From a virus, in IMG/VR virus record IMGVR_UViG_3300028802_000398: a stretch of 64,000 nucleotides of DNA. The stretch is one strand, 5' to 3'. Each line of letters starts with the position of its first letter. The stretch's first letter is position 1. The notes under the pieces are model-generated. The model ran no database searches, was not told where the DNA came from, and saw nothing but the letters and a program-made list of their open reading frames with translations. This document shows, piece after piece, positions 64 through 59,301 of this stretch. A program made the translations under genes and the position numbers.

Positions 64-2283
64 GTGAGCGAGTTGGAAGCGGTCGCGCGAGATCAATCCA
101 AGGGGATGATCGTCTCTGTTCTGTCGCGGGAGACGGCCAAGCTCGGCCACGGCTGGGTCAGTGTCGGCGACATTTGCCCGCGGTGCGGGGCGCTTACGCC
201 AACGGGTGATCACGCCAAGAAGCGGACACGTTGTGAGGCAAAAACGCTGCTAGGTACGGGCGTGATCTCTCGCACGGTGCTGCAGCTCGTGCACCTCTTG
301 AAGCGTTTCGCTCCGAATAACGACACCATTCAGAGCTTGGTTAAGCAGCGGTGGGGCATCAGGTCCTTGGCCTGGCACAAAGATAATGTCCAGGAATTCA
401 CCGGACTGCCGGACGGCTACTTGAACGCCGTGATCGAAAAGCTCAAGAGTGAAGCGAAGTCTGAAGACGGTGCCGATGAATCTCTCCGGCGCGCTATCGC
501 TTGGTGTCTGGTCGCCGCGAATGACCAAACCAAAACGGCAGAGATGGCGGATTATTTCCTTGGGCGGACCATCTACGCCGAGCAAGAATTCGGTCGCCAG
601 CTGCTCTATCTCTTGACCCCCGGCTGCGCGCAACAGACGGCCTTGATAGCACAGCACCGCAAAGCTGCCGTCTCATCCATCTATAGTCCTTGGACGGGAT
701 TTGAGAAAGAAGTAGAGAACGCAAGGGAGGGGGCGTCGTATATCAAGATAGCAGACCTCGGGATATCTTGGGAGGGCGGGAAGCTTACCCTTGGGGGAGT
801 AGCGGCGGCCAGTCTAGAAGCTTGTTGCCGGGCCACTCGCGCTCTTACGTACCCATCGAATCTTCACTGGGGGGCCGAGTGCGGCGAGTTTCTGTTTCAG
901 GCTGTGCCGCAGCCACGGCGCGTTGCGCTCGCAAAGCATATTCAGACTCGCTATCCAGCGACGTTCGATTTCCTTGTCTTGGACGAGTGCCATGAATACG
1001 GGTCGGAGTCGTCGGCTCAAGAGATATCAGCACACCGGCTCACCGGGCTCGGGATGCCTACGATTCAAATGTCCGGTTCGATCATGAACGGCTATGCTGA
1101 GCACTTGTTCATGACCATGTGGTCGGTCTCCGCTGCCTTTCGTCAAGAGTTTTCGCGGGCCGACAAGCAACGATTCATTGACCGTTACGGCTATCGCAAG
1201 CGCCTCGTGACTGAGCGCTCGGATAAGGATGATGAAGTGATCTCGTTCGGGGCTGTCTCGGATCGCGTTCTGACCACAGAACGTGTGATCGGTAACGCTC
1301 CGGGAGTCCTGCCGCTGTTCTTGCTGCGGCATTTGCTGCCGATTTCCGTGACCTTGCATAAGGCGGACCTGTCTCTGGACCTGCCACCGTGCATTCAAGA
1401 GCGGCACCTTATCGAGCCAGGGCCGGTCCTCAAGGCACGCTACGATCGGCTCAAGAGCGATTTGATCGAGCGTATCAAAAAGGATAAGTTCGCGCCCGGT
1501 CTGGCTGGCAAGTTGTTCGGTCAACTCGCGGAGTTTCCCAGTTTCTTGGATAGGGCCACGGTTGACCTTGGCAATTCTGATTCGGGGGCCTACGAGATTC
1601 GATACCCAGAAACAGCGGGCGGCGAGCTTGTGGCGTCTCAGTCAGGGCTGCCGGCGAGCACGATCCTTCCAAAAGAGCAGTGGATGCTCGACCGCATCAA
1701 GCGCGAGTTAGCGGAAGGGCGGAATGTCATGGTGTTTTCGTGGCACGTCAGTCTGCTGCCACGGATCGCGGGGATGATATCAACTGCCATCGGCCAGAAG
1801 GTTCCGATCCTCTACGCCGACAAGGTCGGGACGGCCAAGCGCCAAGAATGGATCACAAAGAACGTGGTTCAGAAAAAAGCGCGGGTGATGGTCACGAATC
1901 CGGTTGCCATCCAAACGGGCCTTAACAACTTGGTGCATTTCGCCACGGAGATCTGGCTTGAAAACCCGACCTGCAACCCCGTGATATACCGTCAAGCGAC
2001 GGGCCGGGTAGACCGTATCGGGCAAACCAAAGAAACCCGGATCTTGTTCCCGATCTACGCCGATACCCTGCAGGTTCAGCTACACGAGCTGCTGCTGCAC
2101 AAGGTGGCGGTGAGCACCGCCACGGACGGGCTCGATCCTGAATCCTCGTTGCTCGCGTCTGGCGTCGGGCCGGATGACTACCTGACTGGGCTTAGCATCG
2201 GCAAACAGCTGTGGGCGATGCTGTCGAGCGACAGGCCGGTAACGCCTAGGAAGAAAGCGCGCGAGACGCAGATCGTTGCATGA
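64..2283 (+). CDS. Superfamily 2 (SNF2-like) helicase/ATPase
   Basis: Walker B LVLDECHE, motif III-like SGS, C-terminal RecA-like domain with QTGLNNL and QATGRVDRIGQ (motif VI). Confidence 0.8.
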   Translation: MSELEAVARDQSKGMIVSVLSRETAKLGHGWVSVGDICPRCGALTPTGDHAKKRTRCEAKTLLGTGVISRTVLQLVHLLKRFAPNNDTIQSLVKQRWGIRSLAWHKDNVQEFTGLPDGYLNAVIEKLKSEAKSEDGADESLRRAIAWCLVAANDQTKTAEMADYFLGRTIYAEQEFGRQLLYLLTPGCAQQTALIAQHRKAAVSSIYSPWTGFEKEVENAREGASYIKIADLGISWEGGKLTLGGVAAASLEACCRATRALTYPSNLHWGAECGEFLFQAVPQPRRVALAKHIQTRYPATFDFLVLDECHEYGSESSAQEISAHRLTGLGMPTIQMSGSIMNGYAEHLFMTMWSVSAAFRQEFSRADKQRFIDRYGYRKRLVTERSDKDDEVISFGAVSDRVLTTERVIGNAPGVLPLFLLRHLLPISVTLHKADLSLDLPPCIQERHLIEPGPVLKARYDRLKSDLIERIKKDKFAPGLAGKLFGQLAEFPSFLDRATVDLGNSDSGAYEIRYPETAGGELVASQSGLPASTILPKEQWMLDRIKRELAEGRNVMVFSWHVSLLPRIAGMISTAIGQKVPILYADKVGTAKRQEWITKNVVQKKARVMVTNPVAIQTGLNNLVHFATEIWLENPTCNPVIYRQATGRVDRIGQTKETRILFPIYADTLQVQLHELLLHKVAVSTATDGLDPESSLLASGVGPDDYLTGLSIGKQLWAMLSSDRPVTPRKKARETQIVA

Positions 2284-3769
2284 CCTTTCTGGCTAGGCGC
2301 ATGACTCGCTTGCCGTAAAGCCCGGCGAGAGACAGCGTCCGTTGCATGCGGAAGAGAGACTCGGGCGAGAGTCTCTCTGGCGCGGCCATGAATGCGACGA
2401 ACGTCTCGGCGAAATCCTCCCGATTATTAGTCTTGGCATAGTCGGTCACCAAGGTGCTCTTGAGTCGCGCGAGCGCGTCTTCTGCGTCTTGCAGTATCTG
2501 ATTCATCTCCGGGTCGGCGTCCGCCAGTACTTGCACCTGTTCTTCAGAAATGTCGACCGCGCCCTTTGAATGGGCATCGAGGCTCAATTGCGTCTTGTAC
2601 ATCTCTAGAAGGAGCTGCTTCTTTTCTTCAAGCTCTTCCGGGGTCAGCGTCAATCCGAGATAATCGCGGCGTGTGTAGTCATCGGGATCTTGGTAGAAGC
2701 CCTTGAAGAAATCGAAGACGTTCTGCCCTTTCTCGGTCACTTGAAATCGCCGTGGCTTGATCAGGGGGTCCTTCCAATGCGGTCTCCTTAGCCATGCGCC
2801 AAACTTGAGCTTATCGAGGCCCTTGAGCTTGGCGGCCGCCTTGCTGACATCGAAGTTCGTGCGCTCTAGCACCGCGAAGAAGCGCTCGCGCTCTTGACGG
2901 GACAGCTGCTTGAACTTGACCTTGACGTGCTCTTTTGTGTCTTCGTACGAAGTCCACGGCTCATCCCATGCCCGCACTGCCGCGGGGGGCAAGGCATGCA
3001 TGTGAACGTGGTGTCCGAACTCGTGCAAAAATGCCTCGTGTATAAACCGCTTCAGCTGCTCCCCCTGACTACGCAGGCTTGCGGCGGACAACTCAATAGT
3101 CCCCCCAAAATAGGTCCCTCCGGCCTTCTCGGCCAACTTGGGCTCTAGGTATACCGCATGCAACCCATCACGAAGAAGCGAGAGATTGACCCCGCGCTTC
3201 TTGAATAGAGCCACGAGATAGTCGATAGCGTCTAGCATCGGCAGGCAGATGCTGTCGGTCATCCGCTGTTGGTTGTAGATAGCGAAACCCTTGTAAGTGA
3301 ATTGATCTGGGCCGATCCCGCGTACGATTTCGGCGATAGCATCGTGTTCTTTGCTGAGGAACTCTTGGTAATCCGCGAGCGGTTGATGCCCATCAAGCAC
3401 AGATTGCGGGGTGCGAATGGAGTAGCCGTTCAGCGGGCCTTCATAACATTGGTGCATCCACTGGCCGAACGGGTTTTCATCGACGCGTGGCCATGCTTCC
3501 CTATTGTCGAGCGAAAACAAAGCCAGTTGTTCGCGACCCTGCTCGTCCAAGGGCTCCTTCAGGCGCATGACGGGCTGATATAGTTTCTCGTAGCGGCTTA
3601 GTGCCGCGGTCGCCTTGGACCACAGATCTTGATCAGAACTCCATGCGCGAAGGTAGCGGGCTAGAACTCGGCGCGCCGAAGTGCGTAGCCTTCCCTTGGC
3701 TTGTGGGGTCATAAGAGACGTGCCACACAAATAGACCCACACTTGGTCCAGGTAGCCAATCCATGACAT
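2246..3769 (-). CDS. Zincin metallopeptidase (lethal-factor/MPTase-like), putative virion protein; true start may be ATG at 3712
   Basis: LHEFGHHVH (HExxH) plus DYAKTNNREDFAETF; N-terminal RRVLARYLRA motif. Confidence 0.7.
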   Translation of the reverse strand: MSWIGYLDQVWVYLCGTSLMTPQAKGRLRTSARRVLARYLRAWSSDQDLWSKATAALSRYEKLYQPVMRLKEPLDEQGREQLALFSLDNREAWPRVDENPFGQWMHQCYEGPLNGYSIRTPQSVLDGHQPLADYQEFLSKEHDAIAEIVRGIGPDQFTYKGFAIYNQQRMTDSICLPMLDAIDYLVALFKKRGVNLSLLRDGLHAVYLEPKLAEKAGGTYFGGTIELSAASLRSQGEQLKRFIHEAFLHEFGHHVHMHALPPAAVRAWDEPWTSYEDTKEHVKVKFKQLSRQERERFFAVLERTNFDVSKAAAKLKGLDKLKFGAWLRRPHWKDPLIKPRRFQVTEKGQNVFDFFKGFYQDPDDYTRRDYLGLTLTPEELEEKKQLLLEMYKTQLSLDAHSKGAVDISEEQVQVLADADPEMNQILQDAEDALARLKSTLVTDYAKTNNREDFAETFVAFMAAPERLSPESLFRMQRTLSLAGLYGKRVMRLARKVMQRSASRALSS

Positions 3770-3900: not shown

Positions 3901-4326
3901 GTGAAGCAGGCTTACAAGAAGCGGACCAAGGGCGTCCCGGTCAAGAACAAAGACACGGGACGCACGGTCTATGTGCTGCCGGAGACGTTGAAGGAGCATC
4001 CGAGCGACTTCAGCAAGGTCCCGAAGGAGAGGGCGGGCGACCCACGCTGGAGAGGCAAACCAAAGCCTCCCAGACGCCCTAGGAAGCCCGAGAAGCCGGA
4101 GGTGCCACGGGAGTCACCCCCTGCCCCTATCCACCCCCAGGACGAAAAGAAGCCCTTCACGCGCATGGACCCCGTGGTCGACGTACCCGAGGTAAAGCCG
4201 ATGAAGGTTCCAAAACCGAGCCCCCCGCGGCGGTGGAAAAAACTTAAGAAGTTTCAGCCCGTAGTCACTGCCTCAGCTAAGGCAGTACTTAAGAGATACC
4301 TAGCAGCTCTTGACGGGAAAACGTGA
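3901..4326 (+). CDS. Basic Lys/Pro-rich hypothetical protein
   Basis: 141-aa ORF; C-terminal VTASAKAVLKRYLAA resembles the shared terminal motif. Confidence 0.6.
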   Translation: MKQAYKKRTKGVPVKNKDTGRTVYVLPETLKEHPSDFSKVPKERAGDPRWRGKPKPPRRPRKPEKPEVPRESPPAPIHPQDEKKPFTRMDPVVDVPEVKPMKVPKPSPPRRWKKLKKFQPVVTASAKAVLKRYLAALDGKT

Positions 4327-6390: not shown

Positions 6391-7227
6391 GTGATGGAAC
6401 GCGTCGCACAGCTGATTAGGACCGCCGCAGAGATCCGCCGCATGATTTGGGCCTCCCTCCCTTTTTGGGAACGGTTTGCGCAGGTTATGTGTGTGCTAGC
6501 CAGTAGCAGCACCGATGCTTTCGGGACTGCGCTGTACGGCATTTTCCTGGAGAACGGTGTTGGGGATATGCCGCCGATCAACGGGAAGCCGGCGAGTGAG
6601 TGGTTGGCGAAGCACTCAGCGAAGCGCTTGCCGCCTGGGTATGGCCGGGACTTCGGGCAAAAGGCGTTTCTGTCGCTCATGCGCAAGTACCACAAACCCG
6701 AGATCGTCGAGGATCTTCTCAGCACGTTCATCGTCCGGTTCATGGAAAAGGCCGGTCAGTATCTGAAGCCGGGAACGTCGCTTCGGCAGGCAGAGGCATA
6801 CGTGATGCGGAGTCTCTACAACGAGGGGATCAACGTTCTGCGGCGTAAGCGTTTCGAGCTAGGCGAGTCGGCCCTCACGCGTGTGGATGAAGAAGAAGGA
6901 CCGGGCTTCCTGGATCGGTCGCCGGGTCAGAAGAATGACCTGGAGGATCAGGAGACCGTTCTAGACGCGTCTGATATGAAGGCAAAGCTTCGCCGCATCC
7001 ACCCGTCGGCCGAGCAGTATCTTCGGCTTTTGATGGAGCGCTACAGTGACGTTGAGATCCTCGGTAACCCTGCCCGAGGGAAGCCGTCCATGCTTGACCA
7101 TCCGTTCAATGCGGATGGGGGGCCGCTCACGGCGACGGCTTGGATTAAATATAAGAAGCTCATATTCCAGGCGGTCAAGAACGAATATCCGGCTCTGGTC
7201 GAACAGCTGGAGGACGCGGCGGAATAG
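6391..7227 (+). CDS. Divergent sigma-70/ECF-like factor with N-terminal extension
   Basis: VEDLLSTFIVRF ... AYVMRSLYNEGINVLRRKR resembles sigma region 2; N-terminus MMERVAQLIRTAA. Confidence 0.5.
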   Translation: MMERVAQLIRTAAEIRRMIWASLPFWERFAQVMCVLASSSTDAFGTALYGIFLENGVGDMPPINGKPASEWLAKHSAKRLPPGYGRDFGQKAFLSLMRKYHKPEIVEDLLSTFIVRFMEKAGQYLKPGTSLRQAEAYVMRSLYNEGINVLRRKRFELGESALTRVDEEEGPGFLDRSPGQKNDLEDQETVLDASDMKAKLRRIHPSAEQYLRLLMERYSDVEILGNPARGKPSMLDHPFNADGGPLTATAWIKYKKLIFQAVKNEYPALVEQLEDAAE

Positions 7228-7229
7228 CC

Positions 7230-7580
7230 ATGGCCAATCCTAACCGGCTATCTCAGAGCTACGACTTTCGAGCGCGGCAGGGGCACGGTCAGGAGAGCTT
7301 GGCTGTTTACAAAACCACGGCTGGCGCCCTTGCGCGCATCATGTTCAAAACCGATGGGGCTGGGCTCTCACGCGGCACGTATCCGGGGACCTCGATCCGA
7401 ATGCGTCAGATTGACGACAAGGCTCCGGTCACGCTGATCGTGCGTCGGTACGGCGGCCGTGTGGAGGACCAAGACGGCGGATGGATCGCCGATCGGTTTG
7501 GGCCAGCCGTCGGTGTCCGGGAGGCGCGGCGTTGTGCCGAGCAGCTCGAACGTGAAGGGGTCGAGCCCGAGCTGCGGTGA
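7230..7580 (+). CDS. Hypothetical protein (YDFR motif)
   Basis: 116-aa ORF starting 2 nt after the previous stop; SYDFRARQG near N-terminus. Confidence 0.6.
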   Translation: MANPNRLSQSYDFRARQGHGQESLAVYKTTAGALARIMFKTDGAGLSRGTYPGTSIRMRQIDDKAPVTLIVRRYGGRVEDQDGGWIADRFGPAVGVREARRCAEQLEREGVEPELR

Positions 7581-7601
7581 ACGTCTGGTGTAGCGCAGTG
7601 G

Positions 7602-9233
7602 GTGAATCAGATCCTACTTGGCGATTGCCTGGACGTTCTTAAGACGTTGCCGGGTGAATCGGTGCACTCGGTCGTAACCGACCCTCCATATGGCCTAGGC
7701 ACTAGAGAGCCTAGTGCGGATGAGATCGTCGCGTACCTGCAGGGCGGGGAGCTGGATACCTATGGGGATTTTATGGGCAGGGATTGGTCCATCCCGCCGG
7801 TTGCGGTTTGGCGCGAGTGCTTCCGAGTCTTGAAGCCTGGCGGACACCTGCTTTCGTTCGGCGGGACCCGCACCTTTGACCTGATCTCGATCGGGATCCG
7901 CGCTGCGGGTTTCGAGTGCCGCGACACTGTTGCGAGCCAGTTTGGGGTCCAGTGTCTGCAGTGGGTTCAAGGCCAAGGATTTCCAAAGGCATTGGCGGTG
8001 CAACGAGCGCTTGAGAAGGCTGGGCTTAGCCATGAGGAAGCCGAGCAATGGTCGGGCTGGGCCACGGCGATTAAGCCTAGCTGGGAGCCAATTTTGGTAT
8101 TCAGAAAACCCCTCGCTGAGTCTACGGTCGCGAAGCAAGTGCTCGCGACAGGCACGGGTGCGATGAACATCGATGCTTGCCGCGTTCGCTTCAGGAGCAC
8201 TGAGGATAAGGCCAGCGCGTTTCCAGGCGGCGTTCTGACTTCTCGGGATGTTACGGGTGGGGGGCTCGGGGCCGGCATCAAAGATTGCGAGCGCAAGGTC
8301 TTTGAAGCTGATCGCCCAGCGGGGCGGTGGCCCGCGAATTTGTTGTTATCGCACAGCTCGGAATGCAAAATCACCGGCTCCAAGAAAGTCCCCGCGCCAG
8401 TCATCAATCGCTTTGACGACGGGATGAAGCCCTTCGGCGACGGCGCCGGGCACAAGTATACGTCTGAGCAAACTGGCGACGCGGACGGCATGGAGGAAGT
8501 GCCGGTCTACGAATGCGAGGTCGGGTGCCCGGTCAAGACGCTGGATGAGCAGAGTGGGGTGTCGACATCGCTGGGTGGGAAGAGCTGGGGTAAGTTCGCT
8601 GGAGCTGTCCCATATGAAGACCAATTCAGCGGTTTGAATCCCGGTGCAACTGCTGGTGGCTTCGGCGATACCGGCGGAGCCTCTCGTTTCTTCAGTCAGT
8701 TCGAGCCTGACGCTGCTGACGTACCTGTCTATGAGTGCGCCGATGGTTGCCCGGTCAAGGAGTTGGACGAGCAGAGCGGAATGCTCGTTAGCAAGTGGGG
8801 GCGTACAACTGCCCGTCACTCTGAAAACAACTCGATGTTTGGTATGGGTGTTGGTCTTCCCGACTCGATAAACAAGTACGTCGGAGAAGTCGGCGGAGCC
8901 TCTCGTTACTTCAGCCAGTTTGAGCCCAATGCCCCATTCTTCTATTCTGGCAAGGTCAGCAAGGCGGAGCGTGACCGTGGCCTCCCGAAGGGCACCAACA
9001 AGCACCCGACGGTGAAGCCGCTCGCCGTGATGCGCTGGCTGGTTAAGCTAGTCACTCCCAAGGGGGGCACGATCCTGGATCCGTACTGCGGGAGCGGGAC
9101 CACGTGTTTGGCTGCGCTCGAAGAGGGCTGCCAGTTCATCGGGATCGAGCGTGACCCGGAGTCTCACCAGGTCGCGGTGCTTCGCACGACTCGCGAGCCC
9201 GACCTGTTCGACGAGATCGGGGCGCTCGAATGA
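7602..9233 (+). CDS. DNA amino-methyltransferase (N6_N4_Mtase, beta class) with internal repeats
   Basis: VTDPPY catalytic motif, HPTVKP, LDPYCGSGTT SAM-binding motif. Confidence 0.9.
   Translation: MNQILLGDCLDVLKTLPGESVHSVVTDPPYGLGTREPSADEIVAYLQGGELDTYGDFMGRDWSIPPVAVWRECFRVLKPGGHLLSFGGTRTFDLISIGIRAAGFECRDTVASQFGVQCLQWVQGQGFPKALAVQRALEKAGLSHEEAEQWSGWATAIKPSWEPILVFRKPLAESTVAKQVLATGTGAMNIDACRVRFRSTEDKASAFPGGVLTSRDVTGGGLGAGIKDCERKVFEADRPAGRWPANLLLSHSSECKITGSKKVPAPVINRFDDGMKPFGDGAGHKYTSEQTGDADGMEEVPVYECEVGCPVKTLDEQSGVSTSLGGKSWGKFAGAVPYEDQFSGLNPGATAGGFGDTGGASRFFSQFEPDAADVPVYECADGCPVKELDEQSGMLVSKWGRTTARHSENNSMFGMGVGLPDSINKYVGEVGGASRYFSQFEPNAPFFYSGKVSKAERDRGLPKGTNKHPTVKPLAVMRWLVKLVTPKGGTILDPYCGSGTTCLAALEEGCQFIGIERDPESHQVAVLRTTREPDLFDEIGALE
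8499..8933 (+). repeat. Two tandem ~220-bp units inside the DNA methyltransferase
   Basis: VPVYECxxGCPVKxLDEQSG ... GGASRxFSQFEP occurs twice with different cores. Confidence 0.8.
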
Positions 9234-11569: not shown

Positions 11570-12661
11570 ATGATTAGAGAGGGAATCGCAGATCGTGTCG
11601 CTTGGCGCTATGCCGCGGCCGCGATGTCGGAGGATAAGTTTAAGGAGCTGCTTCTCAAGATACGCAAGGGTGCGACCACGAGCTTGACGATCAAGCAGTG
11701 GCTAGAGGTGCTGGCACGGTTGGGCGGGGGCTGGAAGGTGGAAAAGACTGTCGCCTTCGTTACCACCCAGGGTTATGAGACGGCGGATAACCGGCCCCAA
11801 CACCACTTCGAGTACGACATCGGACGGATTCAGGCGGTACACGCGCGGCTGAAGCAGCAAGAGGTTTCGAGCAAGCCCTCTGCGCCGAAGTTCGGGCACA
11901 AGTACGTGATTGACCTCTCGGATGTGAAGGAGGGACAGCCGGGATCTTGGTATGTCACCTATCACGAGTTCGTCGGGACCGACGGCTTCCTTTTTACGTC
12001 ACCGGAGGGACAAGTCTTCGAGCAGGGCGCCGATCTAAATCAGGTGGAGCGTGGCGACTACAAAAAGATGACGCCTTACGCACTCGCCGCTTGGCTCGAC
12101 AAGAAGACCAAGCTGAAAGAGCAGGTCTCTAACTACTTGGGCATGGACACCCATGAGGCCGAGCGAGACAAGAAGAAGCCCAAGACCCGTAGCGCGAGCG
12201 GGACGTGTTCCTGTTGTTTCCGCAACATCAAGCTGAAGGCCCGCAGTAACGCACCGCCCACGATCGTGCTCCATGGCTATGAGCGCCCTGGTTGGGGACA
12301 GATCCGGGGTAGCTGTTACGGTGTCGGCTATCAGCCTTTCGAGCTTTCGTGCGAGGGAACCGAGCACCTGGTCGAGGTCCTCGACAAGAGTGAAGCCCAC
12401 CACAAGGACTTCCTGCGCCGTCTCGAAAATGGGGAAGTTGACCAGCTGCTCTATGAGCTGTCCGGAAACGCCAAGATGATCAAACCAGGGGATCTGGCTT
12501 GGGATCGTCTGCTCGCGGGAAGGATTGATGAGACCAAGAAGCTCCTAGCGCGGCTGGTGAAGGATCTTCAGGTCCTCCGGAAGCTCATCGTTGATTGGAA
12601 GCCGCAGCCGCTGCCCGAAGAGGGTCAGGCGATCAAGCCGCCTCCCGTGCAGTTTCGGTAG
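11570..12661 (+). CDS. Hypothetical protein with RVAWRY N-terminal motif
   Basis: IADRVAWRYAAA; CSCC..H..C cluster in C-terminal half. Confidence 0.7.
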   Translation: MIREGIADRVAWRYAAAAMSEDKFKELLLKIRKGATTSLTIKQWLEVLARLGGGWKVEKTVAFVTTQGYETADNRPQHHFEYDIGRIQAVHARLKQQEVSSKPSAPKFGHKYVIDLSDVKEGQPGSWYVTYHEFVGTDGFLFTSPEGQVFEQGADLNQVERGDYKKMTPYALAAWLDKKTKLKEQVSNYLGMDTHEAERDKKKPKTRSASGTCSCCFRNIKLKARSNAPPTIVLHGYERPGWGQIRGSCYGVGYQPFELSCEGTEHLVEVLDKSEAHHKDFLRRLENGEVDQLLYELSGNAKMIKPGDLAWDRLLAGRIDETKKLLARLVKDLQVLRKLIVDWKPQPLPEEGQAIKPPPVQFR

Positions 12662-12860: not shown

Positions 12861-13055
12861 ATGACGACGCAGCTCACAAGACAGCCCATAGCCCAGACGG
12901 TGAAAACCGTGGGGACGTGGTGTGCCCTGAGCTTGAGCGCCGAAGGTTTGTCGGCGAGCTATCTCGGTCGCAAGCCCATGGTCCATCAAGCCTCAGAGTT
13001 TATTGCCCGCAATCCGCGGAACTTTGAGGCAGATACTAGGGCGGCACTCGACTAA
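12861..13055 (+). CDS. Small hypothetical protein
   Basis: 64-aa ORF downstream of a GGTGTA motif and followed by a terminator. Confidence 0.45.
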   Translation: MTTQLTRQPIAQTVKTVGTWCALSLSAEGLSASYLGRKPMVHQASEFIARNPRNFEADTRAALD

Positions 13056-13080
13056 TCGATCCCACAAGAGGATTGAATCG

Positions 13081-13118
13081 AGGGCCGACCTGGGAAACCA
13101 AGTCGGCCCTTTTCGTTT
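13081..13118 (+). terminator. Rho-independent terminator
   Basis: AGGGCCGAC/GTCGGCCCT stem followed by TTTCGTTT. Confidence 0.75.
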
Positions 13119-13196
13119 CTAGGGACTCAAGATGATCACGCGACACGAACCATTACACGAACGCTATCGACGCTCAGCTGCCACGGATACGTCTAT

Positions 13197-13276
13197 CCGG
13201 GTGCTGGGCATTGGTGAGCCCAAGGAGCTGTAACCTCCCCGTGAAAGCTGTGCTCGTTCGAATCGGGCCACCCGGA
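13197..13276 (+). tRNA. tRNA-Tyr(GTA)
   Basis: CCGGGTG/CACCCGG acceptor, GGAG-CTGTAAC-CTCC anticodon arm, TTCGAAT T-loop. Confidence 0.75.
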
Positions 13277-13331
13277 CTAATGAAGGTAACCATGAAGGAA
13301 CTCAAACGAATGCTGCGACGCCGCCTATTTT

Positions 13332-13404
13332 GGGGTCGTAGCTAAGTGGCCAAAGCAACCGACTTTTAATCGGGCGATCGAGGGTTCGACTCCCTCCGAC
13401 CCTA
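13332..13404 (+). tRNA. tRNA-Lys(TTT)
   Basis: GGGGTCG/CGACCCT acceptor, loop CTTTTAA, GGTTCGACTCC. Confidence 0.9.
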
Positions 13405-13410
13405 CCGAAT

Positions 13411-13485
13411 GCCGCGCACGCTCAACGGCCGAGCAGCAGATTCTTAATTTGCCCCTACAGGGTTCGACTCCCTGGCGCGGTACCA
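13411..13485 (+). tRNA. tRNA-Lys(CTT)
   Basis: GCCGCGC/GCGCGGT acceptor, GCAGA-TTCTTAA-TTTGC, encoded CCA. Confidence 0.9.
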
Positions 13486-13547
13486 GCAAGACGCGAAAGG
13501 CCCCGAATGCCGGGATCAGCCTGGATAAGCGATAGTGGCGTCTTTGC
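13486..13547 (+). ncRNA. Structured RNA motif, copy 1 (related to 16158-16214)
   Basis: GCAAGACGC/GCGTCTTTGC outer stem enclosing GAAAGGCCCCGAATGCCGGGATCAGCCTGGATAA. Confidence 0.45.
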
Positions 13548-13728
13548 TCTGTGACAACTGAATATTGGAATTCGAGATGATCACGTCATCGGAGTCGTGC
13601 TGGGCGGATCCCTAGGCGATGAAGTGTGGCGTCGTCATCCGTCTTAGCGGGGGTCTTGGGCTCCTAAGGCCTGAGGCCCCCGCGAAGGACAATGTAGCTC
13701 CAGTGCGGAGCTACAGCAACGTATTGTT

Positions 13729-13800
13729 GCCCTCGTACGCATCTGGTGAAGCGGGCCGATTGTCGATCGGTCGAGGCAGGTTCGACTCCTGTCGGGGGCG
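13729..13800 (+). tRNA. tRNA-Asp(GTC)
   Basis: GCCCTCG/CGGGGGC acceptor, GCCGA-TTGTCGA-TCGGT, G73. Confidence 0.9.
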
Positions 13801-13900
13801 CCTAGATGGCTGCAGAGCCTATCTGACAGCGGGTCTGTTAGATCACAGCGAGTGTCGAGAATCTAGCCGGTAGCCGCGACCGTACTCGCAGCGGCGCCAA

Positions 13901-13975
13901 GGGGTCATCGTCCAACTGGGAAGACACCTGGTTTGCACCCAGGAAATCGGGGATCGTAGCCCCGTGACTCCACCA
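13901..13975 (+). tRNA. tRNA-Ala(TGC)
   Basis: G3:U70 pair, CCTGG-TTTGCAC-CCAGG, CCA; atypical T-loop ATCGTAG. Confidence 0.85.
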
Positions 13976-14044
13976 TCAATGCCATGACTTGAATGAACCG
14001 GTCGTTGGGGATAAGGGCCAGATGCGGGCACCCTTATCCCCGTT

Positions 14045-14118
14045 GTCCCCGTCGTCTAAAGGAAAGGCACAGTCCTACGAAGGCTGCTATGAAGGTTCGA
14101 GTCCTTCCGGGGACGCCA
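14045..14118 (+). tRNA. tRNA-Arg(ACG)
   Basis: GTCCCCG/CGGGGAC, CAGTC-CTACGAA-GGCTG, CCA. Confidence 0.9.
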
Positions 14119-14130
14119 AGGTCGTGAATC

Positions 14131-14835
14131 TTAGGCCTGCTGCATGAGTGGAATGTTCGGCCGAACTGTAGAGACGAACTTCCGAAGCTTGCGGTAGGTC
14201 TCGATGTCCGCCTCTACGGCTTCTAAGGCAGCTTGTTTCAGGGCCGCCTCCTGTTGGACCTCTCTAAGAAGATCGACCATCTCATCGTGCTCTGCTTTGA
14301 GGTCTTTTTGTTTCGCGGTCAGCTGTTCGAGCACGACTTTGCCATTCTCAAGCCATGCTGCAATGTTGTCAGTTTTGCGCTTCGGTTGAGTCGGCGCCGT
14401 CACTGGCTCTGGCGTCACCGCTAGTTCTGGCTCTGGATCGGATACCACTCGCGCTGCCGTGGATCGCGGAGCAAGCTTAACGAGCGCCTGTTCTTCGGCA
14501 GGCGGTGGCACTGACGCCGGAGCGGGAGCGGGAACGGGAGCGGCTAGAAGACTCGCAAGTGCCGGTGGGACCGCCCGCAGTAGCGGCAGTGATTGTTGTT
14601 GTGGCTGTGGGTTCGGGACAGGGCGGGGCGCCTTGGCGATTCGTTTCAGGCGCTTGTAGGGGATCTTCTGATTCCCTCCACTATCGAACCGGACCGTCGC
14701 GAAGGCTGACTCCTTGTCCACTATGCGGCCAGCTCGCATGGAGCTTGTTCCGCTGCCATATCCTGGGAATTCGACGTTTACCTCGTCGCCGATCTCCCAG
14801 TCATCCCGTAGATCCTGCAGGCTGTTTTCGGGCAT
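14131..14835 (-). CDS. Hypothetical protein: Tudor/SH3-like N-terminus, Pro/Ala linker, coiled coil
   Basis: WEIGDEVNVEF..GRIV..ATVRFD pattern; heptad-rich C-terminus. Confidence 0.6.
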   Translation of the reverse strand: MPENSLQDLRDDWEIGDEVNVEFPGYGSGTSSMRAGRIVDKESAFATVRFDSGGNQKIPYKRLKRIAKAPRPVPNPQPQQQSLPLLRAVPPALASLLAAPVPAPAPASVPPPAEEQALVKLAPRSTAARVVSDPEPELAVTPEPVTAPTQPKRKTDNIAAWLENGKVVLEQLTAKQKDLKAEHDEMVDLLREVQQEAALKQAALEAVEADIETYRKLRKFVSTVRPNIPLMQQA

Positions 14836-15024
14836 GGTCGCGCTCCTCCAAGCGCAATACCGTGTACGTTACCGCCAAATTGTGCCTGCGCGCAAGCGCT
14901 TGTCCGCGCGCAAGCTTTTCCCCGCGGCTGGTGTAGCGCGGGCTCTGAGGGAACGCCACTGCCACTTGGCCAAGAGCCAGTCGATCGAATCAGGCGTGAC
15001 TTGCCGGAGAGAGTTCCGGCTCAT

Positions 15025-15110
15025 TCCAGGGTGGGGGAACGGTAATCCCACGGCGCTGTTAACGCCGCGTCCCGCAAGGGCAATTGCAGGTTCGAGTCCT
15101 GCCCCTGGAG
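15025..15110 (+). tRNA. tRNA-Asn(GTT) with a long variable arm
   Basis: TCCAGGG/CCCTGGA, CGGCG-CTGTTAA-CGCCG, G73, extra arm GTCCC-GCAA-GGGC. Confidence 0.8.
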
Positions 15111-15140
15111 CCGAGCAGCATCCACATCGACCAAGCAAAC

Positions 15141-15214
15141 AAGCAAAAACGCCCCAAGGTGGGGCATCTTTCGGCAAAAAAGACAAAGGCGGGTTCGATT
15201 CCCGCTTTGCAACA
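15141..15214 (+). pseudogene. Degenerate tRNA-like element (Cys GCA-like)
   Basis: D hairpin GCCCC/GGGGC, TCTTT-CGGCAAA-AAAGA, perfect T arm, only 5-bp acceptor. Confidence 0.5.
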
Positions 15215-15273
15215 TCACTGCTTGATCTCTCGGGTGCTGCTCTAATCTTTTGGTGTAAATCTCTAGTGCATGA

Positions 15274-15346
15274 TGCGGGTTGGAGAAACGGCTATCTCGT
15301 GAGTCTCATAAACTCAAGACACCTGGTTCAATTCCAGGACCCGCTA
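15274..15346 (+). tRNA. tRNA-Met(CAT) with 1:72 mismatch
   Basis: TGAGT-CTCATAA-ACTCA; T1/T72 mismatch, but no 3GC anticodon stem, so initiator status is unclear. Confidence 0.8.
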
Positions 15347-15372
15347 CCGAGAGTGTTCACATTACCAGGCAT

Positions 15373-15444
15373 ACACGCGTAGCTCATTTGGTAGAGCGTC
15401 TGTCTTGTACACAGAATGTTGCTGGTTCGATCCCAGTCGCCCTC
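15373..15444 (+). pseudogene. tRNA-Thr(TGT)-like with broken acceptor stem
   Basis: Canonical D, anticodon (TCTGT-CTTGTAC-ACAGA) and T arms; only 3 acceptor pairs. Confidence 0.6.
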
Positions 15445-15487
15445 GAAAGAGGTTGTCCTGCCTGATTCCTCGAACACTCTCTTTTCT

Positions 15488-15679
15488 ATGACGGTCTCCG
15501 AACTCATCCGCCTGTTGAGCCAATGTCAGGACCCGAATCGGTCCGTGACCATCGGCATCAAGAGACAGCGGTACATGGCGTCGCTTGACGAGGTCTATCT
15601 TGACGCCGAAGGCATCGGGCCGAGTGGCAAAGAGCTGGTGGTGGCCCTCGTCAACGCAGAGGAAGATCTCCCTAATTAG
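15488..15679 (+). CDS. Small hypothetical protein
   Basis: MTVSELIRLL-type small phage ORF. Confidence 0.55.
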   Translation: MTVSELIRLLSQCQDPNRSVTIGIKRQRYMASLDEVYLDAEGIGPSGKELVVALVNAEEDLPN

Positions 15680-15738
15680 GCTCATCCGCCATGCGCGGAA
15701 GGAGTAACGAGGCCGTCTCGCGAGAGGCGGCCTTAGCA

Positions 15739-15811
15739 CGGACGTTATAACTAGGGTTTAGTTTGGCGCTCTGATAAGGCGCAGAAAGAGGTTCGACTCC
15801 TCTACGTCCGA
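15739..15811 (+). tRNA. tRNA-Ile(GAT)
   Basis: CGGACGT/ACGTCCG, GCGCT-CTGATAA-GGCGC. Confidence 0.85.
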
Positions 15812-15821
15812 CTGAGACTAT

Positions 15822-15898
15822 CTAGATGTAGCACAGCTTGGTAGTGCGCACCGTTTGGGGCGGTGAGGTCGTGGGTTCGAATCCCCCCATCTAGACCA
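15822..15898 (+). tRNA. tRNA-Pro(TGG)
   Basis: CTAGATG/CATCTAG, CACCG-TTTGGGG-CGGTG, CCA. Confidence 0.9.
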
Positions 15899-15900
15899 AT

Positions 15901-15977
15901 CGGAGTGTTGCCTAGTGGTAAGGCGCTTGTCTCGGGGACAAGAGATACCGGGGGTTCGATTCCCTCCACTCCGACCA
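15901..15977 (+). tRNA. tRNA-Pro(CGG)
   Basis: CGGAGTG/CACTCCG, CTTGT-CTCGGGG-ACAAG, CCA. Confidence 0.92.
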
Positions 15978-16077
15978 ACCACGTCCAGCACCAAAGCCGC
16001 GTAAGTCGTTCCAAGGAACGTTGCGGTCACTCTGGGTAAGCCGTCTTCACGACGTTCCAGTGGTGCCCGTGGGTCTT

Positions 16078-16148
16078 ATGTCGTTCATCTAATGGTAAGA
16101 TGGAAGATTCCAAATCTTCTCATTCGGGTTCAAGTCCCGAGCGACATG
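16078..16148 (+). tRNA. tRNA-Trp(CCA)
   Basis: ATGTCGT/GCGACAT, GAAGA-TTCCAAA-TCTTC. Confidence 0.85.
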
Positions 16149-16157
16149 CTGAGGACA

Positions 16158-16214
16158 ACCTACGTGAGAGATAGGCCCGAGAGTGCCGGGCGCGGCCCGA
16201 ACAAATCAGTAGGT
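16158..16214 (+). ncRNA. Structured RNA motif, copy 2 (related to 13486-13547)
   Basis: ACCTAC/GTAGGT outer stem enclosing GATAGGCCCGAGAGTGCCGGGCGCGGCCCGAACAA. Confidence 0.45.
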
Positions 16215-16288
16215 GACCGCGTATATTGGTTTCCGCCGCGACCGGCATGGGACGGCGGAAGTTCTCGGTGCGCCTAAACGTAAACAAT

Positions 16289-16367
16289 GCCCGTGTCGCC
16301 TCATGGTGAGGCACCGCACTCGTAACGCGGCTTTTTTCGGTGGGTTCGATTCCCATCACGGGCTCCA
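16289..16367 (+). tRNA. tRNA-Thr(CGT)
   Basis: GCCCGTG/CACGGGC, loop CTCGTAA, TCCA end. Confidence 0.88.
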
Positions 16368-16368
16368 T

Positions 16369-16446
16369 GGGTTGTGAGCTAGTACGGTTATTCAGCGACC
16401 GCCTGAAGAGCGGTAGAACCAGGTTCGACTCCTGGACAACCCACCA
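16369..16446 (+). tRNA. tRNA-Phe(GAA)
   Basis: GGGTTGT/ACAACCC, ACCGC-CTGAAGA-GCGGT, CCA. Confidence 0.9.
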
Positions 16447-16450
16447 CTGC

Positions 16451-43320: not shown

Positions 43321-44841
43321 ATGAAAGTAGAAGCTAGACTCACACACAGCAAGGTTCGTTTTGACCAAGAGACGAACGGCCATCTGGTCGTCACCGTGAC
43401 GGCCCCGGAAACAACCACCAACGAGGAGAAGCGCCCGGCGCTCTGCATCGTGCCACTCATCGATGTGTCCCCCTCGATGGAGGGCGCGAAGCTTCTGTAC
43501 GCGAAGCGCTCGCTGATCAAGCTCATCGATCATCTCTCCGCGAATGACTATTGCGGGTTGATTGCGTTTTCGTTCTCGGCGCAGACGTTGTCCAAGCCTG
43601 TTAAGTGCACGCCAGAGGCCAAGGAAGACCTCAAGCGCAAGGTGCAGGGGCTCACGTTGAGCGGAGCCACGAACATTGCGGACGCTTTGCTTGAAGGATT
43701 CCGCGTCGCGAACAACATGGACCTTCCGAGCGAGGTGATCACCCGAGTCATCTTGTTCACGGACGGTGCGGCCAATACGGGTCCGGCGAAGACTCCGCAG
43801 GAGCTGCTCGCCCTGGTGAAGCCAAACATCGGGATCGCTTCGGTCAGTGCCTTCGGCTACGGTCTCGACGCCGTCCAGGATTTTCTCTCGGACTTGTCCA
43901 AGGCTGGCAACGGTAACTATTCGTTCGTCCAGAACCCTGACGATGCGCTCACTGCTTTTGGCAAGGAGCTTGGTGGCCTCCTAAGCACGTACGCGACGAA
44001 CTTGACGCTCGCCATTGGCCCGCTCGCGGGCCATGAGGTGACCCAAGTCGTCACGGACGTGGATGCTGAAGAAGAGGACACTGGCCAAGTTAGGCTCAAG
44101 GTGTCTGACATCTTGGCGGGCGAGACGCGCAACTTCGTGCTCTCGGTCAAGCTGCAAGCACAGAAGGCCGCCTTTCCTCGGGAAGTCAACGTATTCAACA
44201 TCCAGGCTGGGTACGACATCCTCGATGCCAACCTACGCCGCGAGCACAGGAGCCTTGGGACGAATGCCAAGGTGCAGTTCGTCAAGGACGGCGAGCAACA
44301 GGAGAAGCCTGCACCCGAACTCGACCAAATCGTCGGCTTGGCGCAACTAGTCCGGGCTCAGCTTGAGGCGGAGGACCACGCCAAGCGAGGTGACTTCATC
44401 ACAGCGCAGAGCGTGATGAACACCGTTTCCACGGACGTGAAGACGCGAGGCCTTGTTGGGATCGGGGATGTTGCTACGAGCATCGGTGCCCGGTTGCGTT
44501 CGCGGGACAGCTACGCCGGTAGTCAGGCATACCTGGCCAGCGTCACGCGTGGCGGCACCCGCGGTTATAGCGGCACCTACGAGACATCCGCCGCTCAGGA
44601 CCTGCAGTCCTTGGGTGTCAACCTGACGAATTCATCGCAGGCAACCGTGTCAGCGACCTTCGCGGCGCCGGCTGCTTTGGATGTCAGCGCTGCCCCTGAC
44701 AACACGTTGGGGGCTTGGGGTACGACGGGGAGTATCCCTTGGGGCGCGGCAGTGACGCCGGAGACGGTTACCGGCGCACCGCAGCCCGATAACCCGAAAG
44801 ACAAGAAGCGAAAGATCAGCCAGAAGTTAAAGCTTTGGTAA
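43321..44841 (+). CDS. vWA-domain protein (YfbK/VIT-like)
   Basis: LIDVSPSME MIDAS, GATNI, ILFTDGAAN. Confidence 0.85.
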   Translation: MKVEARLTHSKVRFDQETNGHLVVTVTAPETTTNEEKRPALCIVPLIDVSPSMEGAKLLYAKRSLIKLIDHLSANDYCGLIAFSFSAQTLSKPVKCTPEAKEDLKRKVQGLTLSGATNIADALLEGFRVANNMDLPSEVITRVILFTDGAANTGPAKTPQELLALVKPNIGIASVSAFGYGLDAVQDFLSDLSKAGNGNYSFVQNPDDALTAFGKELGGLLSTYATNLTLAIGPLAGHEVTQVVTDVDAEEEDTGQVRLKVSDILAGETRNFVLSVKLQAQKAAFPREVNVFNIQAGYDILDANLRREHRSLGTNAKVQFVKDGEQQEKPAPELDQIVGLAQLVRAQLEAEDHAKRGDFITAQSVMNTVSTDVKTRGLVGIGDVATSIGARLRSRDSYAGSQAYLASVTRGGTRGYSGTYETSAAQDLQSLGVNLTNSSQATVSATFAAPAALDVSAAPDNTLGAWGTTGSIPWGAAVTPETVTGAPQPDNPKDKKRKISQKLKLW

Positions 44842-44944: not shown

Positions 44945-46177
44945 GTGGGCACCTTGAGGGATACCGCGCAGATTCTCCGCGTCGCGGAACGGTTTAAGCA
45001 GGCTAAGATCGTCGCCTTGCCGGTCGATTTTGGGCCGTACTTTCACTCAGTACTCGCCAAGATCAAGCTGGATGCTAAGCGCATCACGGACAACGTCAAT
45101 CTGATGCTGAAGACGTGCAAGGCAGATGAGGATATCGACTACGGGACCCGCCGCATGGATATGGCTCCGTTCGACTTTGATAGTATCCCGTCAACGTTGG
45201 ACGATCTGCTGCAGAGCTTCGATCTCGCGCTCCGTTTGAACAATTCACGATCTGGTCTAGAGCGATCGCTGAGTCTAGACACCCTTGACGATGACTACCG
45301 ATTCGCGCCTCTGAAGTCGCGAAGCAAGGTGGACCTGGGTGCTGCCATCAAGCACATGAAGGATTACGATGTGCCGAGTTGGTTCATCCGGGCTTACGAG
45401 GAAACTGTCGAGCTGCTTCAAGGTATCGTGCAGCGGGTCGAGAAACTACGAGACCGCTTTCAAGGCTCTAAAAAGCTGGAGCCAGAGAAGATCGAAACGC
45501 TATATCACGCCTCGGTAAATGCACGAGACCTTTACGCGAAAGGGTTTCAACTGACGCGACCTGAGGGCGGGATGGGGCTAGGTGGCAGTGTTGAGGACAA
45601 CGCTGGCAAGGACGCTATCTCGTTCACTCATGATCTTGCCTACGCCCTGCAGATCGCCCGCTGGTTCAAAGAGATGGCCATGGTTGCATCTGGGGACATC
45701 AAAGCGAGCCAGATTTTGCGGTGGGCAAATAAGGAGGGGATCGCTGAGAAGGTGTTCGAGTATGCGAGCGGGCTTGTCAGCCAAGTAGGCGACCTTTTCA
45801 CGGAAGGGGGACGAGTGAGGCTCGACTTCAGTGGAGGTAAGGTCCGAGTGGTCCGAGATCAATGGGGGCCAGCCAAGAAGGAAATTGTAACGGAGACCGA
45901 GGACCCGGATGAGTTGTTCAAGAAGAAGCGGGCGCTCTACGATCTCTACATGTGCTATATCATGCAGAGTCCGCATCGCTCGAATCCGATGTCAATGAAC
46001 ACGACAGCGACGTTGGAACGCATGGACAGGGATAACGTGCAGCCGCGTGACATTGGGGTCATTACCGCCGAGATCGACATGTCAGACCCGGACATCAAGT
46101 ATTTGCCTGGAGAGGCCGAGTATCGAGTTCCTCCCCGCTCGATCAAAAAGGTTGTCCGATTCGTTGGTGACCCATAG
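44945..46177 (+). CDS. Putative ADP-ribosyltransferase-fold protein, RVAERF motif
   Basis: LYHAS...GF...GLGG...ISFTHD...EAEYRVPP; paralogue of 30158-31432. Confidence 0.6.
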   Translation: MGTLRDTAQILRVAERFKQAKIVALPVDFGPYFHSVLAKIKLDAKRITDNVNLMLKTCKADEDIDYGTRRMDMAPFDFDSIPSTLDDLLQSFDLALRLNNSRSGLERSLSLDTLDDDYRFAPLKSRSKVDLGAAIKHMKDYDVPSWFIRAYEETVELLQGIVQRVEKLRDRFQGSKKLEPEKIETLYHASVNARDLYAKGFQLTRPEGGMGLGGSVEDNAGKDAISFTHDLAYALQIARWFKEMAMVASGDIKASQILRWANKEGIAEKVFEYASGLVSQVGDLFTEGGRVRLDFSGGKVRVVRDQWGPAKKEIVTETEDPDELFKKKRALYDLYMCYIMQSPHRSNPMSMNTTATLERMDRDNVQPRDIGVITAEIDMSDPDIKYLPGEAEYRVPPRSIKKVVRFVGDP

Positions 46178-57880: not shown

Positions 57881-58618
57881 TCAAGCCTTGGCCTTCGCGC
57901 CGCCGAGGTCGACCTCCTGCCACTTTTCGCCGTCGTACCACTCGACTGACTGCAAGCGTAGAATCTCACCGGCCCCAAGGAACGTCTCTTCCTCGTAGTA
58001 GAACTCTTCCGAGGTCTCTTTAGGCGCGTGCTTGTAGTTACGTTTCTGGTCGTCGCGTCTGTACTGCGCGTGGATGACCACGGGAATTCCAACGTCCTCC
58101 TTGAGTTTGCTCGCCCACCCGGAAAACGCTAGGGCAACGGTTTTGTTCGTTGGCTTTGTCCAGTGGGTACCCAGAGGGCGCGACTGCAATAACCTCAAGA
58201 GAGAGGCTTTGACACCGGCGGGACTTTGGTTGAGCACCGCGGCTGGGTCCTTCATCTCGATGAACATGCCACGGATGTAATCGCGTGGCTCCACGTTACA
58301 TCTGTCTGTTGCCCAGTCTTCTCTGATCAGGCTCGGTAACCATGTGCCGAAGCTGTAGTGCTCGTTTGGGATGAGAGAGTACTTGTTGTTCCCCCGCGTA
58401 TCGATCTCAAAGCGCATGTTGCAGTTGACACATTCGGACTTCCACCTCTCGCCTTTTCTAACATTCTTCCAAGGGCCAAGGTCATGCCCGTGTTGCTCTG
58501 CCTCCTTGGTGATCCTGACTGCGTAAGCATTCGCTTCATCATCGGGCCACATCCCGCGAGGCTTCGTGTACCGGGCCGTCAAGTATCGCTGCACAACACG
58601 CTGGGCAAGGATAGGCAT
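57881..58618 (-). CDS. Hypothetical protein with RVVQRY N-terminal motif
   Basis: MPILAQRVVQRYLTA; CTCTTAT 16 nt upstream. Confidence 0.7.
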   Translation of the reverse strand: MPILAQRVVQRYLTARYTKPRGMWPDDEANAYAVRITKEAEQHGHDLGPWKNVRKGERWKSECVNCNMRFEIDTRGNNKYSLIPNEHYSFGTWLPSLIREDWATDRCNVEPRDYIRGMFIEMKDPAAVLNQSPAGVKASLLRLLQSRPLGTHWTKPTNKTVALAFSGWASKLKEDVGIPVVIHAQYRRDDQKRNYKHAPKETSEEFYYEEETFLGAGEILRLQSVEWYDGEKWQEVDLGGAKAKA

Positions 58619-58641: not shown

Positions 58642-58647
58642 GAAGTG

Positions 58648-59301
58648 CTAGGACCCAGGCAAATCGCTCGCCGTGGGGGTCGTCATCAGTTTCTTCATGA
58701 CGGCGCTCAGTGGACGGTCGAGGAGCAAGAGCAGGATTTCCTCCGTGGGAAACCACAGCGCGTTGATAGCGTGCCAGACCCCGCCTGAGAATAGCCCTGC
58801 CAATTCTGGTGCGGCAAAATAGATAAGAAGTACCTTGGCCAGGATGCGCAGCAACTGCTGTTTGGCCGCTTGAAACTCTTTAGGGTGGACTTCATCGCCG
58901 TTCGCCCATCGGCTGGCAACGTCCCCCAGATGCCGTGTTGACCGCGCGTCTTTGCGCAGTGCCTTCTTGAAGGCGGCCTTGATCTCTTCCCGGAACGTGG
59001 AGGAGCGGATCAGCTTCCCGAGGACAAAGAACGGGCGTACCAGGGCGTACCAAAGTCCGCGTAAGACTAGCCCTCCTAGTGCCTTCACCATCGGTCCGGC
59101 GGTTTTTCCTTCGGCCATGGAGTTGAGGGCGTCAGCGGTGAGGCCCTTCTCCACGAGTGCGCGGTCGACGCGCTTTTTGCTGAAAAGGTCGAGGCCACTC
59201 AGCTCTAGCAGGAAGGCATCCGCCACCTGGTCAGCGAGTGCCTCCAGCGCATCCTCTTGGGCGCGCTTGAAACGCATTAGCACTCGACCCTGACAGTCCA
59301 T
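58648..59301 (-). CDS. Hypothetical protein with RVLMRF N-terminal motif
   Basis: GRVLMRFKRA; helical with hydrophobic segments. Confidence 0.65.
   Translation of the reverse strand: MDCQGRVLMRFKRAQEDALEALADQVADAFLLELSGLDLFSKKRVDRALVEKGLTADALNSMAEGKTAGPMVKALGGLVLRGLWYALVRPFFVLGKLIRSSTFREEIKAAFKKALRKDARSTRHLGDVASRWANGDEVHPKEFQAAKQQLLRILAKVLLIYFAAPELAGLFSGGVWHAINALWFPTEEILLLLLDRPLSAVMKKLMTTPTASDLPGS

Follow-up and report, generated by a model that had tools for sequence, protein, structure and literature searches.

A short peptide of ca. 12-15 residues, built on the core [RK]V[AVLS]xR[YF], is carried at the ends of many otherwise unrelated proteins in a clade of uncultivated huge phages. We describe it from a stretch of 64,000 nucleotides of the IMG/VR virus record IMGVR_UViG_3300028802_000398 (the window, by which we mean this whole stretch) and from the genomes of its relatives. 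The peptide is terminal, portable from one protein to another and present throughout the clade. We consider it very likely that it serves as a portable docking (address) tag. As for what it docks to, the best single reading is, tentatively, the loading of tagged proteins into the phage head; the case for a partner there is circumstantial.

The window is part of a metagenomic contig of 195,771 bp. Its closest public relatives are another IMG/VR contig (G001, 407,634 bp), syntenic with the window between 43 and 64 kb at 30-60% protein identity, an "uncultured phage" (LR745208.1, 485,034 bp), and smaller contigs (G004, L002, and L003). No close cultured relative of the window is available, and neither a tblastn search of a phage collection with one carrier of the tag nor a single-protein scan of viral contigs produced any match.

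The core motif was found 8 times in the called open reading frames (ORFs) of the window, against a mean of 0.2 (maximum 2) in 200 composition-preserving shuffles. All 8 matches were terminal, that is, located at most 45 aa from the ORF start or at most 25 aa from the stop (binomial P = 4e-5). The situation in G001 was similar, with 15 matches for 1.6 expected and 12 of the 15 at an end (P = 3e-5). The observed counts are ca. 10- to 40-fold over the shuffled expectation, and the reversed motif, used as an additional control, gave no match in the window or in G001. The more restrictive RV..R[YF]..A appears in 8 copies in the six-frame translation of the window, 7 of which lie close to the beginning of a long ORF, and a ninth copy lacks the final Ala. 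One internal match to the strict motif (32772-32798, + strand) lies inside a vWA protein (32436-34391), 126 aa from the ORF start. It is absent from the profile matches scoring at least 11 (see below) and is probably a chance occurrence outside the system.

We also built a profile from 30 terminal instances, the eight tags of the window being part of the training set. These eight score between 17.5 and 29.4, while the maximum for reversed proteins was 9.3. The profile gave 12 matches in LR745208.1, a genome that did not contribute to the training, versus none on its reversed proteins. A degenerate pattern at the DNA level had been too noisy in this genome (7 matches vs. 7 in the control), and it was the scoring at the protein level that then revealed the tag. 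The codons used for Arg and Val vary freely among the copies, and therefore the signal resides in the peptide and is not a DNA or RNA element. All ten peptides listed in the original prediction, which had been made from the DNA letters and the translated ORFs of the window, are found where it placed them, and eight are strong by the profile. The other two fared differently. The C-terminal variant in 3901-4326 lacks the first Arg, and its score of 8.0 is inside the null range and not significant alone; it is nevertheless plausible by its position and by analogy with the clear C-terminal tags of G001 and LR745208.1. The partial match at 6397-6429, in the ORF 6391-7227 (+), scored below 3.2 and was discarded as a carrier.

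It had also been claimed that these proteins are otherwise unrelated and that a motif no commoner at termini than internally would speak against a tag. The terminal excess just described points the other way, and the bodies of the carriers have no similarity detectable by BLASTP, with the exception of a pair of true paralogues (30101-31432 and 44945-46177, 42% identity over 229 aa, E = 6e-49). Orthologues with 30-46% identity retain the tag, and several of the relatives have it. Literature searches retrieved no published description of this motif.

Across the clade the tag is found at the N-terminus, at the C-terminus, at both ends or as tandem copies. In G001, the N-terminal tags belong to a topoisomerase IB, an ADP-ribosyltransferase (ART)-like protein and several proteins without annotated function, whereas C-terminal tags are found in a 2H phosphoesterase (Acb1/LigT-like), in a protein whose DnaJ match is below threshold and in others. 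Two paralogous lethal-factor-like zincins (weak Pfam matches) carry it at both ends, and several proteins have a doubled tag in tandem. Firm Pfam matches among the carriers are Topoisom_I (E = 9e-26) and 2H phosphoesterase (E = 4e-13); DnaJ (26.8 bits, cut-off 27.8), the lethal-factor-like zincins and a C39-like peptidase fall below the cut-offs. The matches in LR745208.1 include zincin-like proteins, a C39-like peptidase (again below cut-off), a 2H phosphoesterase and a fusion of HAD and topoisomerase IB. The topoisomerase, of the pox type, is found in four relatives (LR745208.1 404201-405727, G004 22929-24110, G001 356515-357333, and L003 ca. 7030-7859). It is located in the head-packaging module in two of them. 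In LR745208.1 it forms a fusion with a HAD_SAK_1 domain, and in L003 it was called as a single ORF together with the ART-like gene.

The family of the window protein 11570-12661 is the clearest example of this portability. Its body begins at a conserved motif, and the extension ahead of it carries one, two or no tags, with ca. 20 of 33 relatives having one or two. The orthologue in LR745208.1 and another member (P0039) have no N-terminal tag and end instead in two tandem variants at the extreme C-terminus. Carriers are proteins of 136-580 aa with one body apiece. There are dozens of them in the relatives, and perhaps 20-30 different ones per genome.

The consensus can be written as small/hydrophobic-A-x-[RK]-V-A-x-R-[YF]-L-x-A. 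Conservation extends to positions outside the core used for the selection (Leu/Ile at -3, Ala at -2, Leu at +6, and Ala at +8), while those on the solvent side (-1, +3, and +7) are variable. The conservation has alpha-helical periodicity, with a resultant of 0.28 at 100 degrees and no more than 0.08 at other periods. AlphaFold2 models of the ART-like family place a helix at residues 4-16, followed by a Pro-rich linker and then a confident body; in carrier 5 of the window (Table 1) the pLDDT is below 50 at residues 1-5 and 7-18, and the helix is detached from the body. As modeled, it has the anatomy of a docking peptide with a single reading face, on which two Arg stand beside a stripe of Val, aromatic, and Ala-Leu residues. 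We infer docking to one common receptor, which would read this face (both Arg and the Val, together with the aromatic residue and the flanking Leu/Ala). The phages of this clade would attach the same address to varying sets of proteins, a good many of which look like enzymes.

The likeliest receptor would be a component of the assembling head, be it the scaffold or core, the interior of the capsid or the portal. In that case the virion would carry the tagged enzymes and deliver them together with the DNA, as happens with the internal proteins and Alt of T4. Several observations on gene context are consistent with this. A tagged ART-like gene of G001 is located between the large terminase and the portal. 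Between the portal and the prohead protease of G004 there are a tagged topoisomerase IB and a highly charged, low-complexity protein of 697 aa; the latter bears a strong tag (score 28.6), and its C-terminus resembles the tag. The gene occupying the position of this charged protein in the Tunturiibacter phage Tunturi_5 is annotated as "DNA ejection protein." The tagged topoisomerase IB gene of LR745208.1 adjoins the portal gene. By analogy, the repertoire of carriers also seems to match proteins injected by other phages, such as T4 Alt and the polyvalent proteins. A fuller version, which we regard as rather unlikely, is a two-way loading code tunable by copy number, in which the RVAxR[YF]-tagged proteins would be packed and injected as a kit of perhaps 20-30 enzymes per virion, with a topoisomerase and a signal-degrading phosphoesterase among them and, probably, also proteases and ADP-ribosyltransferases.

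The major capsid protein of the clade (G001 84874-85752) belongs to the HK97 family (PF25209/PF05065, phrog_2522); the gene was missed by a genome search with PF05065 and was located through its conservation together with phrog_2522 and PF25209. It is 83% identical in G001 and LR745208.1 and has more than 2000 matches in a metagenome protein collection, the best 120 all being at least 84% identical. By this protein the closest isolates are Tunturi_5 (49% identity) and the Bacillus phage G (40%). Look-ups by sequence in the atlas and the PDB for three other G001 proteins (76273-77841, 82693-83874, and 86520-88277) gave no usable identity. A co-fold of the G001 major capsid protein with a tagged N-terminus (residues 1-40) had a score of 0.00, which is evidence neither way.

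Several points weigh against loading into the head. No receptor was found, and the idea of packaging in the virion is circumstantial, resting as it does on gene context and on analogy with the kinds of carrier. The majority of the tagged genes of G001 are far from the head module, and both in G001 and in L002 a cluster of tagged genes stands beside a gene for a ClpX-like unfoldase, which would fit another receptor. Some copies are internal, e.g., between the HAD and topoisomerase IB domains in LR745208.1. No cultured phage bears the tag, and the nearest isolate, Tunturi_5, is not enriched in it (3 matches vs. 5 in the control). Comparing the instances by eye, we detected no conserved protease-cleavage motif beside the N- or C-terminal tags, and the consensus has no sequence likeness to the capsid-targeting sequence (CTS) of T4. 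Regulation does not help either. Of the 9 tagged genes of the window, 4 (2246-3769, 21187-21717, 44945-46177, and 57881-58618) have a T-rich element (CTCTTAT or CTTTTAC) 0-17 nt ahead of their start, as does 1 of the 58 others (P = 8e-4). However, the corresponding pattern C[CT][CT]TTA[TCA] precedes 1 of 15 tagged, 4 of 84 structural, and 11 of 331 other genes in G001, which leaves co-regulation with late genes unsupported. A "late promoter" tying tagged to structural genes was post hoc in the window and was not replicated in G001, and we rejected it.

The original prediction had drawn the parallel with T4, whose internal proteins carry an N-terminal leader, and expected a cut after the Ala. 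In T4, the first 10 residues of IPIII suffice for targeting to the head, whatever the cargo, and Alt, an ADP-ribosyltransferase, has propeptides and is processed at both termini (PMC9026906). As in the CTS of IPI-III and Alt, here too a short terminal peptide is common to unrelated, fast-changing proteins of a large phage. The differences are nevertheless considerable, and a T4-like leader, as it had been proposed, finds no support. The tag does not resemble MKTYQEFIAE and is not followed by a cleavage motif of the L/I-x-E kind. The CTS is found at the extreme N-terminus, whereas the tag is as often C-terminal or tandem, may be present at both ends, and switches ends among orthologues. Moreover, the head of this clade is of the HK97/phage-G type and not T4-like.

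Another functional parallel may be found in the encapsulation peptides of bacterial microcompartments and the cargo peptides of encapsulins. These are amphipathic helices or short peptides of 10-20 residues that, at either terminus and through a flexible linker, dock diverse enzymes to the inner face of the shell, and encapsulin shells have the HK97 fold. The capsid protein of our clade has the same fold, and the tag is likewise a short amphipathic helix, at either terminus, with a flexible linker. On the other hand, its consensus is different, and this is a viral system with perhaps 20-30 carriers per genome and without microcompartment or encapsulin genes. Scaffolding proteins such as gp8 of P22 bind the inside of an HK97-fold capsid protein by means of a basic amphipathic C-terminal helix, and the tag is also a basic amphipathic helix. 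The likely scaffold of the clade (G001 86520-88277) terminates in another conserved motif, which it has in common with its G004 counterpart, and therefore the tag is not a simple copy of the scaffold end. Finally, the polyvalent proteins (Iyer, Burroughs, Anand, de Souza, and Aravind 2017, as cited in PMC7824862) are, according to this citing work, thought to be injected with the DNA against host defences. As they are summarized there, they resemble the carriers in having ART, zincin metallopeptidase and nucleotide-signal-degrading domains, with the difference that their domains are fused in one giant protein whereas the tag carriers are separate small proteins, each with its own tag. The latter would be a modular alternative to polyvalent proteins.

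There are other possible explanations in which the virion plays no role. One would be that the tag tethers phage modifying enzymes to a hub of the host (RNA polymerase, ribosome, DnaK or nucleoid), concentrating them on their targets without any packaging. The targets of the firm carriers (topoisomerase IB and 2H phosphoesterase), and also of the weaker ones (ART-like proteins and putative peptidases), would be host components or nucleic acids, and the majority of the tagged genes lie dispersed, away from the head module. Peptides bound by Hsp70 generally consist of a hydrophobic core flanked by basic residues, and one carrier has the sub-threshold DnaJ match. We nonetheless find this alternative unlikely. 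A single fixed site in the host is hard to square with carriers chemically so different, and the tandem and double-ended copies would speak for avid binding to a multivalent lattice. It also leaves unexplained the tagged genes of the packaging module and the tag-like helices of the charged head-module protein.

To a ClpX-type unfoldase, of the phage or of the host, we give a little less weight still. The tag would be in this case a degron or adaptor-like handle that times the unfolding or degradation of takeover enzymes. ClpX does read N- as well as C-terminal signals, and a short C-terminal peptide of SspB is bound by its N-domain (PMC3983244). ClpX-like genes (zf-C4_ClpX plus AAA+, with the LGF loop visible in the sequence) are found beside tagged genes: that of L002 (11852-13138) is between the tagged ART-like gene and two more tagged genes, and that of G001 (366008-367276) adjoins a gene with a variant tag. 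The window also encodes what its N-terminal sequence suggests is an HslV-like Ntn hydrolase (25390-25935, +). We take the SspB peptide to contain L-R-V-V-K, which would resemble the A-L-R-V-A at the start of the tag. Presumably, though, it binds as an extended strand, whereas the conservation of the tag has helical periodicity. A phage ClpX as universal receptor can be rejected because LR745208.1 bears the tag and has no ClpX homologue at E < 0.01; there is none in the window or in G004 either. A host ClpX is a possible receptor. However, one would not expect a degron to occur in tandem or at both ends, nor a head-module protein to contain helices resembling it.

A third alternative, in our opinion improbable, is an assembly other than the capsid or the mutual association of the carriers, for instance a replication or takeover factory, or the bundling of tag helices into a multi-enzyme complex that would be functionally like a polyvalent protein. 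The hydrophobic face of the amphipathic helix and the multivalency provided by tandem and double-ended copies are in keeping with this, and the carriers overlap in domain repertoire with the injected polyvalent proteins (PMC7824862). However, we found no scaffold protein bearing matching repeats, the clade has an HK97-type capsid related to that of phage G, and the two invariant Arg suit a complementary acidic receptor better than self-association. Lastly, the Arg/Ala-rich composition of the genome (58% G+C) and the one pair of paralogous carriers might suggest no common function at all, i.e., a common helix-forming sequence or a diverged homologous N-terminal domain, a notion that is very improbable and close to refuted by the enrichment over shuffles, the absence of the reversed motif, the terminal position retained at 30% orthologue identity, the use of opposite ends within one family and the lack of detectable similarity beyond the tag.

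The carriers of the window are collected in Table 1. Searches of ten window proteins against Pfam and PHROGs gave no firm family for any of them.

Table 1. Proteins of the window carrying, or possibly carrying, the tag, with the position of the tag and its profile score.
Feature	Position	Strand	Protein	Tag	Profile score	Remarks
Carrier 1	2246-3769	-	507-aa ORF, likely ATG at ca. 3712	N-terminal, 3641-3685	26.6	C-terminus with weak likeness to zincin peptidases (Pfam Peptidase_M90, E = 0.004, under the curated cut-off)
Possible carrier	3901-4326	+	141 aa, Pro/Lys-rich	C-terminal variant, 4267-4311, 5 aa before the stop		
Carrier 2	11570-12661	+	363 aa	N-terminal, 11579-11623	25.1	phrog_28271 over the C-terminal part
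Carrier 3	21187-21717	-	176 aa	N-terminal, 21670-21714	25.2	No family match
Carrier 4	29640-30050	+	136-aa ORF, likely shorter	29691-29735	17.5	Tag followed by an acidic and then a Lys-rich stretch
Carrier 5 (P0001)	30158-31432	+	424 aa	N-terminal, 30170-30214		
Carrier 6	44945-46177	+	410 aa	N-terminal, 44963-45007	26.2	Paralogue of carrier 5
Carrier 7	57881-58618	-	245 aa	N-terminal, 58571-58615	28.0	G001 orthologue 228985-229773 (30% identity) keeps the tag
Carrier 8	58648-59301	-	217 aa	From the first residue, 59257-59301	25.2	

Carriers 5 and 6 deserve some attention, an ART fold being weakly supported for this family. Carrier 5 is laid out as tag, PPR linker, four-helix bundle, and ART-fold-like C-terminal domain. 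Homologues with 33-73% identity (P0002-P0007, P0009, and P0013) keep the tag, while the most distant members of the family lack it. The residues H215, S253, T255, E406, and E408 are invariant (cf. the catalytic positions H / S-x-T / E-x-E). When the C-terminal domain was compared by VIA-align most of the top rows were ARTs (diphtheria-toxin-like, PARP, and pertussis S1 folds, and also an ART-like domain belonging to the cyanophage pre-ejectosome protein 9k3a_B), but the best Z was only 6.8. Foldseek found nothing for this domain at E ≤ 0.001, and Pfam likewise none; with the full model, Foldseek and VIA returned only helical-bundle look-alikes of the N-terminal domain. The gene of carrier 5 begins directly 3' of a tRNA-Gln.

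We detected a second portable N-terminal module, of ca. 45 aa (M-x-KIA-[NS]..EL..EL-R..LAY...PSR..[IV]AS), heading otherwise unrelated proteins. There are two copies in the window (27069-27806, +, and 42620-43015, -), 57% identical over 47 aa, and four in G001 (146264-146929, 168994-169875, 238761-239582, and 241966-242346). The module ends in an RVA-like helix. It is present in the G001 orthologue of the window protein 17336-18598, while the window protein itself does not have it. Directly after the tag or after this second module, several carriers (L002 14033-14950 and G001 238761-239582) have the motif ..P-[ED]-A-L-[KE]-K-Y-L-x-[ED]-H-P-x-A-D-x-S-K-H.., and a looser version is found in the window protein 3901-4326 and in the charged head-module proteins. 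Yet another N-terminal motif, R-L-A-S-x-M-P-x-G, is common to G004 1411-3126 and 12878-13804 and could represent a third tag family.

The window has a G+C content of 57-59%. It contains 34 tRNA genes in several blocks (13197-30155) and genes for GroEL (chaperonin), a RecD-like helicase, RecA, a DNA methylase, NAD-ligase and ribonucleotide reductase. A phage-borne hybrid sensor kinase of 1095 aa (22069-25356, +) has multiple PAS, HisKA, HATPase, and receiver domains. The Ntn hydrolase-like protein next to it is 181 aa long, begins with M-T-C-I-V, like hydrolases of the HslV/proteasome-beta type, and has a homologue in LR745208.1 (246786-247334). There are three vWA-domain proteins (32436-34391, 39251-41611, and 43321-44841, +), two with orthologues in G001, and the first of them is part of a ubiquitin-like operon. 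The hexamer GGTGTA precedes by 8-15 nt ca. 13 start codons of the window (e.g., 7602, 25390, 39251, 46222, 53717, and 59356), many of them of non-tagged genes. Upstream of the genes of G001 it is found 30 times for 2.6 expected (11-fold), often as CCGGTGTA. We take it for a clade-wide promoter or initiation signal.

The general kind of signal to which the tag belongs is known from the CTS of T4 and from encapsulation peptides; the use of either end, the tandem copies and the switching of ends among orthologues are new traits. Even if the receptor is not in the capsid, a motif that organizes ca. 5% of the genes of a genome provides an entry into proteins that are otherwise unannotatable. Should the tag act as a code for loading or docking, it would mark at once the accessory enzymes that a large group of uncultivated huge phages deploys jointly, and it would offer a handle for the pull-down of the receptor, for the prediction of virion cargo from sequence only and for the loading of foreign proteins into capsids. 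Action from either end and in tandem would separate the tag from the T4 signal and bring it nearer to the logic of encapsulins and microcompartments. If the fuller version with a two-way loading code is true, these phages would have a cargo system far larger and more modular than that of T4, and one directly usable as a protein-delivery tag.

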